13,817 bases of DNA from a virus. Taxonomy: Duplodnaviria > Heunggongvirae > Uroviricota > Caudoviricetes. The position numbers and the translations under genes were made by a program. Below, one piece after another: positions 12,868-13,817 of this stretch. The notes under the pieces were generated by a model. It ran no database searches, was not told the DNA's origin, and saw only the letters and a program-made list of their open reading frames with translations. The stretch's first letter is position 1. Every line of letters begins with the position of its first letter. The stretch lies in the IMG/VR virus record IMGVR_UViG_2645727640_000022; one strand, written 5' to 3'.

Positions 12868-13386
12868 TCAGAAGGCAGTCGGGCCTCTAAAGCATTTCGG
12901 GTTGAACAGATAGGAAGCCCTACAGTACGAACAAACCATATTAACGACTCGCCCAAGGCCTAGCTTAGTAACCAGACCTTCCGCTTGCAATATAGATTTT
13001 CTCTTTTGCTCGTAGCAATTGGGACAAATATAAACCGGAGATTGGTCAGCATCTGCAGAAAGCTTGCTGCGATAGACCAGAGTACCCCGCATAGGCTGGT
13101 AAAGTTCATAGCTCGCCGCTTCAGCGGCCCAGTTCTCTTGCTTTACTTTCTCATTTTCCAGTTCAACAATTTTCTCCTTAGCCGCAATCAGCAGCTCCTG
13201 AAGCGACATTTGCTGCATCTGAACATCCATTAGCTTATCGAGTAAGATGTGCGTCTTCTCTTTAACTGCATAGTCGACAGTCAGATTCTGAATCTCTCTT
13301 GCTGCTCCAACCGCGCTTTTAATTGCTCCTCCCACACCGGATAACGATTCAGTTATCCGGGAAAGAATTCCTTTTTCTTCAGACAT
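12868..13386 (-). CDS. Hypothetical coiled-coil protein with C-terminal C4 zinc ribbon; moron-like gene beside the immunity region
   Basis: ORF with predicted coiled-coil N-terminal half (…LQELLIAAKEKIVELENEKVKQENWAAEAASYELY…) and C-terminal CPNC…CSYC pair. The ORF track starts at 13413, but 13387-13413 lies inside the IS2 terminal repeat; the ATG at 13386-13384 (MSEEKG…) is the first codon outside IS2. Not recognised as any characterised family. Confidence 0.55.
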   Translation of the reverse strand: MSEEKGILSRITESLSGVGGAIKSAVGAAREIQNLTVDYAVKEKTHILLDKLMDVQMQQMSLQELLIAAKEKIVELENEKVKQENWAAEAASYELYQPMRGTLVYRSKLSADADQSPVYICPNCYEQKRKSILQAEGLVTKLGLGRVVNMVCSYCRASYLFNPKCFRGPTAF

Positions 13387-13817
13387 TGGATTTGCCCCTA
13401 TATTTCCAGACATCTGTTATCACTTAACCCATTACAAGCCTGCTGCCGCAGATATTCCCGTGGCGAGCGATAACCCAGCGCACTATGCGGATGCCATTCG
13501 TTATAATGCTCGAACGCCTCTGCAAGGTTCTTTGCTGCCGTTAACCCGTCTGGTTTGGGCATGATACTGATGTAGTCACGCTTTATCGTTTTCACGAAGC
13601 TCTCTGCTATTCCGTTACTCTCCGGACTCCGCACCGCCGTGTTCTTCGGTTCAAGTCCCAACATCCGGGCGAACTGGCGTGTTTCATTAGCCCGGTAGCA
13701 TGAACCATTATCCGTCAGCCACTCCACTGGAGACGACGGAAGATCGTTGCCGAAGCGGCGTTCCACCGCTCCCAGCATGACGTCCTGTACTGTTTCACTG
13801 TTGAAGCCGCCGGTAGT
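13387..13817 (-). mobile_element. IS2 insertion sequence, right end (partial; continues past the window end)
   Basis: 13387-13430 reads TGGATTTGCCCCTATATTTCCAGACATCTGTTATCACTTAACCC, matching my recollection of the IS2 right inverted repeat; the adjacent ORF matches the C-terminus of the IS2 transposase. Confidence 0.85.
13398..13817 (-). CDS. insD: IS2 transposase (OrfB / InsD, IS3 family DDE integrase core), C-terminal portion; 5' part lies beyond the window
   Basis: The frame is open from the window edge ([82 protein letters not shown]…[33 protein letters not shown]), matching the IS2 InsD C-terminus as I recall it. Confidence 0.85.

Follow-up and report, generated by a model that had tools for sequence, protein, structure and literature searches.

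An IS2 end at the start codon of a prophage gene with Rip1 homology: a recent insertion that most likely reduces or uncouples expression

In the stretch of DNA studied here (the window: 13,817 bp, i.e., the entire contig JHRS01000203.1 of draft assembly GCA_001265595.1), the right end of an IS2 element touches the start codon of a prophage gene. This raises the question of how the boundary arose, whether the gene behind it is complete, and what the element does to its expression. Our reading, to which we give a probability of roughly three in four, is a recent simple IS2 transposition in front of the intact ATG of a rip1 homologue, with Rip1 most likely reduced or uncoupled as a consequence.

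The IS2 part of the junction consists of the following features:

13387 to 13817, minus strand: 3' portion of IS2, 431 nt, 430/431 identity to the canonical 1331-bp IS2 tail
13387 to 13427, minus strand: IS2 right inverted repeat (IRR), 41 bp, with tip ...GGGGCAAATCCA (sequence and PMC3299598)
13398 to 13817, minus strand: C-terminal 139 codons of the IS2 OrfB/OrfAB transposase (translation and NCBIfam NF006918)

On the minus strand, position 13387 is the last base of the IRR, and the adjacent rip1 ATG occupies 13386-13384. The junction reads ...ACAGATGTCTGGAAATATAGGGGCAAATCCA/ATGTCTGAAGAAAAAGG, or in its longer form ...GGGTTAAGTGATAACAGATGTCTGGAAATATAGGGGCAAATCCA/ATGTCTGAAGAAAAAGGAATTC..., with ...CAAATCCA as the IS2 tip (slashes mark the boundary). 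Both the IRR length of 41 bp and the sequence of the IS2 right end follow PMC3299598. As canonical reference we used a 1331-bp copy from another genome (L004), which is bounded by a 5-bp GTTTC duplication; the sole mismatch of the window copy to its tail is at 13441. The window contains the last 431 nt of IS2 alone, i.e., the contig terminates within the element. NCBIfam NF006918 ('IS2 transposase TnpB') is matched at positions 163-301 of 301 (E=3.7e-96), and its score falls under the full-length cut-off solely because the transposase gene is cut by the contig end. The called transposase gene also carries rve Pfam matches (DDE transposase ending just inside the IRR). Its OrfB stop codon TAG is at 13400-13398, such that 11 nt of IS2 end separate it from the rip1 ATG, and IS2 and rip1 are co-oriented (both minus strand).

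An earlier note on this DNA had placed the IRR end at 13387, the ATG at 13386-13384, an AGGGG 8 nt upstream of it, a further in-frame ATG at 13413 and the transposase stop within the junction, all of which are found on the sequence as described. It was mistaken about a '181-aa gene' starting at 13386: the open reading frame from 13386 encodes 172 aa (12868-13386), while 181 aa is the length obtained from the IS2-internal ATG at 13413.

The adjacency of IS2 tip and rip1 ATG is real. It is statistically unremarkable, since about 18,655 IS2 places were matched in complete E. coli genomes, among which a handful of junctions between an IS2 tip and a start codon are expected by chance. Given the draft status of the assembly and the repeat at the contig end, one may also think of an IS2 tail misjoined to a prophage contig. 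An IMG/VR contig that shares the junction matches window 4-13486 without a difference and comes from the same assembly; it is therefore no independent sighting and gives no independent support against such an artefact. Against a misjoin speaks that the join falls exactly at the last IRR base and nowhere else, which is the signature of a true transposition junction, and we consider an assembly error extremely improbable.

The gene behind the junction is:

12868 to 13386, minus strand: full-length rip1 homologue, 172 aa plus stop (PDB 9oox, phrog_1244, ATG shared with DEC5E)

Pfam, NCBIfam and PADLOC return nothing for this gene, which was identified by PHROG 1244 (unknown function; aligned to the gene from profile position 3) and PDB sequence search only. 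The respective PDB entry, 9oox, is the Rip1 protein of Escherichia phage HK446 complexed with the T6 small terminase (Patel et al. 2026, Nature 651:1060, via PMC13434031). A phmmer comparison with chain 9oox_L aligns gene residues 3-166 to 3-162 of 164 (E=1.9e-46), a family-profile search against the PDB finds 9oox at E=1.5e-66, and tblastn to HK446 yields 51.2% identity over the whole length. The AlphaFold (AF2) model of the gene product (pLDDT 76.7) shows helices at 7-34 and 39-90 followed by C-terminal beta strands, and Foldseek matches it to 9oox_M with E=1.6e-10, a TM(target) of 0.89 and an rmsd of 2.1. Sequence and predicted structure identify the gene as a Rip1 homologue and so as a relative of an anti-phage defence that is carried by prophages and acts by forming pores, an identity that was overlooked in the earlier note. 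Rip1 (ring interacting pore 1) was first described in 2026. As summarized in PMC13434031, it is a single-protein prophage defence, sensor and effector in one, that assembles around portal or small-terminase rings of the infecting phage and forms membrane pores, upon which the infected cell is killed; the 12-mer ring, the membrane pores and the phage protection are known from the studied homologues only (PMC13434031). Further Rip1 homologues are found in HK620, in HK630 (hkaP) and in Pseudomonas Mu-like phages of the D3112/DMS3/JBD type.

The window gene and HK446 Rip1 have the fold, the long N-terminal helices and four C-terminal cysteines in common, and the HK446 gene is likewise a lone, oppositely oriented 'moron' gene in the early/immunity region. 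The two prophages differ in type: that of the window has a primase-polymerase and PolA module, with rip1 placed between cI and the replication operon. In contrast to HK446, the window gene has lost its native leader to IS2, and its defence activity and trigger are predicted only.

Among 14 aligned homologues, which come from Escherichia, Yersinia, Rahnella, Photorhabdus and others, every sequence has M1, and 12/14 have the N-terminus MSE/DxKGI, the exceptions being the two most distant members. Cysteines C121, C124, C152 and C155 are invariant as well. As a separate observation, the window has an extra G at 12899 relative to close relatives, which shifts the frame after codon 162 and yields 172 aa rather than 189 aa. 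This 172-aa variant is common to the window and to the prophage of E. coli O55:H7 DEC5E, and it may be the more canonical form because its tail YLFNPKCF aligns with the HK446 Rip1 C-terminus YLFPKSAF.

The DEC5E prophage also provides the IS-free allele. It aligns to window 1-13386 with 99.955% identity (5 mismatches, 1 indel), and the alignment stops exactly at window 13386. Comparison with IS-free homologous prophages, which the earlier note had suggested, thus recovers the pre-insertion sequence. Around the insertion point, the IS-free allele reads ...GATTAGAT/ATGTC/TGAAG, and the native sequence ahead of DEC5E rip1 is ...CACCCCTACAGTTTGAGAGAGATTAGAT, where an in-frame TGA precedes the ATG by 15 nt. 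The DEC5E gene (WP_001288044.1, 172 aa) and the window gene share their start ATG, which is also the annotated start in more distant relatives and in induced phages. In DEC5E, a 224-bp intergenic region lies between rip1 and a divergent replication operon composed of a 49-aa gene, a 300-aa gene, DUF2800, DUF2815 and PolA, and this contiguous IS-free arrangement is observed in 49 complete E. coli genomes.

Two suggestions of the earlier note are confirmed by this comparison, i.e., a precise IS2 insertion at the gene start, given that the DEC5E alignment ends at 13386, and a displaced native 5' UTR and promoter region, given the 224 bp present in IS-free relatives. Its alternative of a '5'-truncated remnant' is wrong: the relatives use the same ATG, a TGA lies upstream of it and the N-terminus is conserved. 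That is, the gene is full length and not a remnant. The earlier note had further counted a shared ATG in IS-free relatives against the insertion; the reverse holds, since the same ATG confirms that the insertion was precise.

We found the IS2/rip1 junction in 0/5,426 complete E. coli genomes, and it is also absent from the genome_contigs and metagenome_contigs collections. Together with the IS-free state of the relatives, this indicates that the insertion is recent and strain-specific. A partial phage genome (vB_EcoM-683R1, ON470593.1) has the rip1 ATG as its position 1, i.e., it starts at the same boundary as the junction; this start probably reflects trimming or an assembly break, not biology.

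As a mechanism we propose a recent jump of an IS2 copy into the prophage that separated the rip1 start codon from its 5' untranslated region. The staggered cut would have been made at ATGTC, which gives the following feature:

13382 to 13386, minus strand: predicted 5-bp target duplication ATGTC (start codon plus 2 nt)

At the left IS2 end, about 1.3 kb farther upstream, one would then find the native leader and the second ATGTC. In the window itself, IS2 sequence has taken the place of the native 224-bp upstream region including its own ribosome-binding site and any promoter there. Since the left IS2 end lies outside the window and outside every collection searched, we infer the simple insertion with ATGTC duplication. 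A 5-bp duplication is what the L004 copy displays. For the left junction, a simple insertion predicts ...GATTAGATATGTC followed by the left IS2 end TAGACTGG..., which can equally be written as ...GATTAGATATGTC/TAGACTGGCCCC... or as ...GAGAGAGATTAGATATGTC or GAGAGATTAGATATGTC followed by TAGACTGGCCCCC...; the predicted sequence would contain a six-codon ORF (MSRLAP) behind the native Shine-Dalgarno sequence (SD).

A search of IMG/VR for this predicted left junction with 0-12 nt slack found no match, and a homologue search with the neighbouring 49-aa gene gave no identical cluster representative. The missing left junction would also fit an IS2-mediated rearrangement, in which an adjacent deletion or inversion removed or moved the native upstream region and perhaps the replication module, such that the other IS2 end borders unrelated DNA without an ATGTC repeat. 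In line with this, none of the viral contigs of the respective IMG genome (2654587792) contains the native 28-mer from upstream of rip1, the adjacent 49-aa gene or the DUF2800 gene, while 5, 18 and 38 contigs of other genomes do, respectively. However, absence from IMG/VR weighs little for a fragmented draft, whose other piece may simply have been missed as viral. On the right-hand flank, collinearity with the IS-free allele extends to the base adjoining the IS2 tip, as a simple insertion predicts, and a simple insertion with 5-bp duplication is the normal IS2 outcome (as in L004). We thus regard a rearrangement as unlikely and keep to the simple insertion.

Next, we consider what the insertion means for the translation of rip1. 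The relevant features are:

13395 to 13399, minus strand: IS2-derived SD-like AGGGG, 8 nt upstream of the ATG, overlapping the transposase stop
13411 to 13413, minus strand: in-frame ATG within the IRR, giving a 181-aa product with 9 extra residues (MSGNIGANP)

The sole SD-like element in front of the rip1 ATG is indeed IS2 sequence, as the earlier note had stated. Its duplex with the 16S 3' end has an energy of -5.6 kcal/mol, compared to -5.3 kcal/mol for the native GAGAGAGA. The predicted mean unpaired probability around the start is 0.52 for the hybrid leader vs. 0.26 for the native one, where an inverted repeat (hairpin) is predicted to pair with the leader's own SD. A putative SD of IS origin thus precedes an intact native start codon at a spacing within 5-10 nt. 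Given that AGGGG is at a workable distance and pairs with the 16S rRNA about as well as the native sequence, the hybrid translation-initiation region is physically real.

Initiation at ATG 13413 instead would yield a 181-aa Rip1 with nine IS2 residues, maybe coupled to OrfAB, and would alter the pore-forming N-terminus. This ATG is in frame without a stop before 13386 and lies inside the end of the transposase frame. However, its SD is poor (-3.1 kcal/mol at 12 nt spacing), the 181-aa product has no gene on record in the public gene-call collection, and OrfAB is rarely translated (PMC3299598). We therefore consider a contribution of the longer product very improbable.

With regard to transcription, IS2 is known to form fusion promoters in which the outward -35 of the IRR is combined with a correctly spaced -10 from the flank (PMC9330008; PMC3299598), and a strict 17-bp spacer rule is reported for the IS2 junction promoter (PMC3299598). 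The candidate -35 is:

13403 to 13408, minus strand: outward IS2 minicircle -35 hexamer TGGAAA, probable position, assuming that the -10 corresponds to IRL nt 1-6

A promoter scan at the junction reported no promoter-like site and no usable -10 after TGGAAA. Nor does any -35-like hexamer across the junction have an acceptable -10 at a distance of 16-18 bp. The best combination of IRR and flank, ATGTCT-17-TCCAAT, matches at 3/6 and 4/6 positions and is without the A at -10 position 2. Because the IS2 tip touches the ATG, any -10 from the flank would be inside the coding sequence and is thus not usable. That is, the arrangement that characterizes an IS2 fusion promoter (a -35, 17 bp and a flank -10 upstream of the start) is absent here.

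These results bear on a reading in which IS2 adaptively activates the gene by supplying both promoter and ribosome-binding site, such that Rip1 is over- or constitutively expressed, which would be akin to the fusion promoters that IS2 forms at ampC and acrEF. For this speaks that the outward IRR -35 does make fusion promoters in other contexts (PMC9330008) and that the SD supplied by IS2 slightly exceeds the native one in strength and is less structured (energies and probabilities given above). Against it, no acceptable -10 exists across the junction, a -10 within the flank would set the transcription start downstream of the ATG such that full Rip1 could not be expressed, and the junction is known from one strain only. 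Activation is accordingly improbable in our view.

Without a fusion promoter, rip1 would be transcribed by read-through only, with the weak OrfA-repressed IS2 promoter or the displaced native promoter as its source. We found no intrinsic terminator within IS2 in rip1 direction, so read-through into rip1 is possible. A sigma-70 scan of the native rip1 upstream region gave nothing above threshold and did not pinpoint the native promoter. The IS2 promoter PIRL is weak and OrfA-repressed, and OrfAB is made via rare -1 frameshifting (PMC3299598), which is why any coupling of rip1 to transposase translation should be slight. Rho-dependent polarity may plausibly occur within the orfB region, which is poorly translated. 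Counted against attenuation, read-through across IS2 could be substantial, given the lack of a terminator and an SD as good as the native one. A search of the accessible literature on orientation and polarity rules of IS2 returned nothing usable. Judged from these sequence features, the net effect is most likely that Rip1 expression is reduced or uncoupled from native control, not activated; a dependence of rip1 on IS2-derived signals is only a possibility. The outcome would be a neutral or loss-of-defence insertion in one strain.

The IS2 right-end fusion promoters at ampC and acrEF (Jaurin & Normark 1983, cited in PMC9330008) involve the same element with the same IRR facing the gene in the same orientation, and there, too, IS2 replaces native signals. 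The difference is that the IS2 -35 cooperates with a flank -10 at ampC/acrEF, whereas the tip in the window sits on the ATG and leaves no flank -10 usable. What IS2 contributes in the window, unlike at ampC/acrEF, is the SD-like AGGGG and its own read-through transcription.

A second comparison is provided by the gal operon, for which Saedler et al. are said to have described a 'turn-off/turn-on' by IS2 in 1974, with polar or inactivating insertions in the leader. In both cases IS2 is placed between a gene and its promoter, with an orientation-dependent effect. Unlike at gal, the coding sequence in the window is fully intact, the start codon is probably duplicated, and a phage-defence gene is affected. 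Taken by itself, the event is real but ordinary, i.e., a single recent IS2 insertion of a familiar kind beside a known defence family. Its interest lies mainly in the gene identity and in a clean natural comparison with the DEC5E prophage: DEC5E with its native leader and the JHRS01 strain with an IS2 leader and untouched coding sequence form a near-identical natural prophage pair, which could serve to ask how lysogens set Rip1 expression and its cost. The locus also illustrates that an IS end may donate a ribosome-binding site as well as a -35; otherwise, it represents routine IS traffic in prophage accessory regions.

A second, independent IS2 adjoins another rip1 allele (174 aa, 42% identity to the window allele) in IMGVR_UViG_648276648_000012 (positions 1-1025; L055). 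Its IRR tip is at 476, beyond the rip1 stop by 24 nt; element and gene are convergent, and this contig breaks in IS2 too. At 100% identity, the flank matches E. coli O45:H2 FWSEC0003, where the IS is absent (IS-free counterpart: L018 973-1796). In the 58 loci fetched, about 45 of them with this prophage family, the only other IS2 ends belong to two unrelated reference copies. One may speculate that the borders of the rip1 cassette are a preferred or selected IS2 landing site and that IS2 is a natural switch for an abortive-infection gene, which we consider improbable. If it were true, the window rip1 would be the last cistron of an IS2 transcription unit, and Rip1 synthesis would depend on transposase transcription and on the ribosome-binding site that IS2 provides.

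Two further candidates related to IS2 sites were rejected. First, IS2 matches elsewhere that reach 15-33 nt into the flank, picked by ranking the about 18,655 IS2 places, are at unrelated sites (minC-ycgJ, an EAL gene) and represent chance similarity. Second, targeting of an IRR-like site by IS2 was considered, given 22/41 matches around a shared ATGTCTG; 51/2000 shuffles are as good.

The Rip1 homologue is in a prophage/temperate-phage setting, flanked by genes for a CI-like repressor, a Cro-like HTH protein, primase, Q antiterminator, terminase and portal (Pfam/PHROG). Next to rip1 is:

11766 to 12440, plus strand: CI-like repressor (HTH and S24 peptidase), convergent with rip1 (Pfam, PHROG)

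The terminator scan places the terminator of this repressor gene at 12471-12495. The slot that separates cI from the replication operon (window 12441-13386 and beyond; L018, L019, H154-H192) has variable cargo. In 49 genomes this is rip1 allele A, elsewhere a divergent allele B that shares the leader and the first ~7 codons; in further genomes, an HNH-endonuclease gene or a shorter insert occupies the slot, or no gene is annotated there. At window 12525-12553 (plus strand), a near-consensus promoter TTGACA-17-TATAAA points to the rip1 3' end. It heads a conserved stretch of ~300 nt without convincing ORF that ends at a GC hairpin (~12748-12768). A small RNA in the region 12500-12800 between cI and rip1 was considered and rejected (no Rfam match at E<=1, fold z-score 0.5). 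Farther away, window 9228-9235 is a T8 where DEC5E has T7. As a result, the primase-polymerase/DUF5906 gene changes frame close to its 3' end (731 aa in the window vs. 753 aa in DEC5E); this could be a true frameshift or a homopolymer error of the draft assembly.

L001 3947-4170 is the native region upstream of rip1, which IS2 has displaced in the window strain. Just upstream of rip1, it contains an 11-nt direct repeat, ACTGTAGGGGT, occurring twice at 34 bp distance. In addition, there is a 10-nt perfect inverted repeat, TATGTCTGAA, of which one arm covers the rip1 start codon and the other is located 163 nt upstream, where it adjoins a GC hairpin plus T6. Both repeats and the leader hairpin are possible operator or regulatory elements of the native rip1 region.
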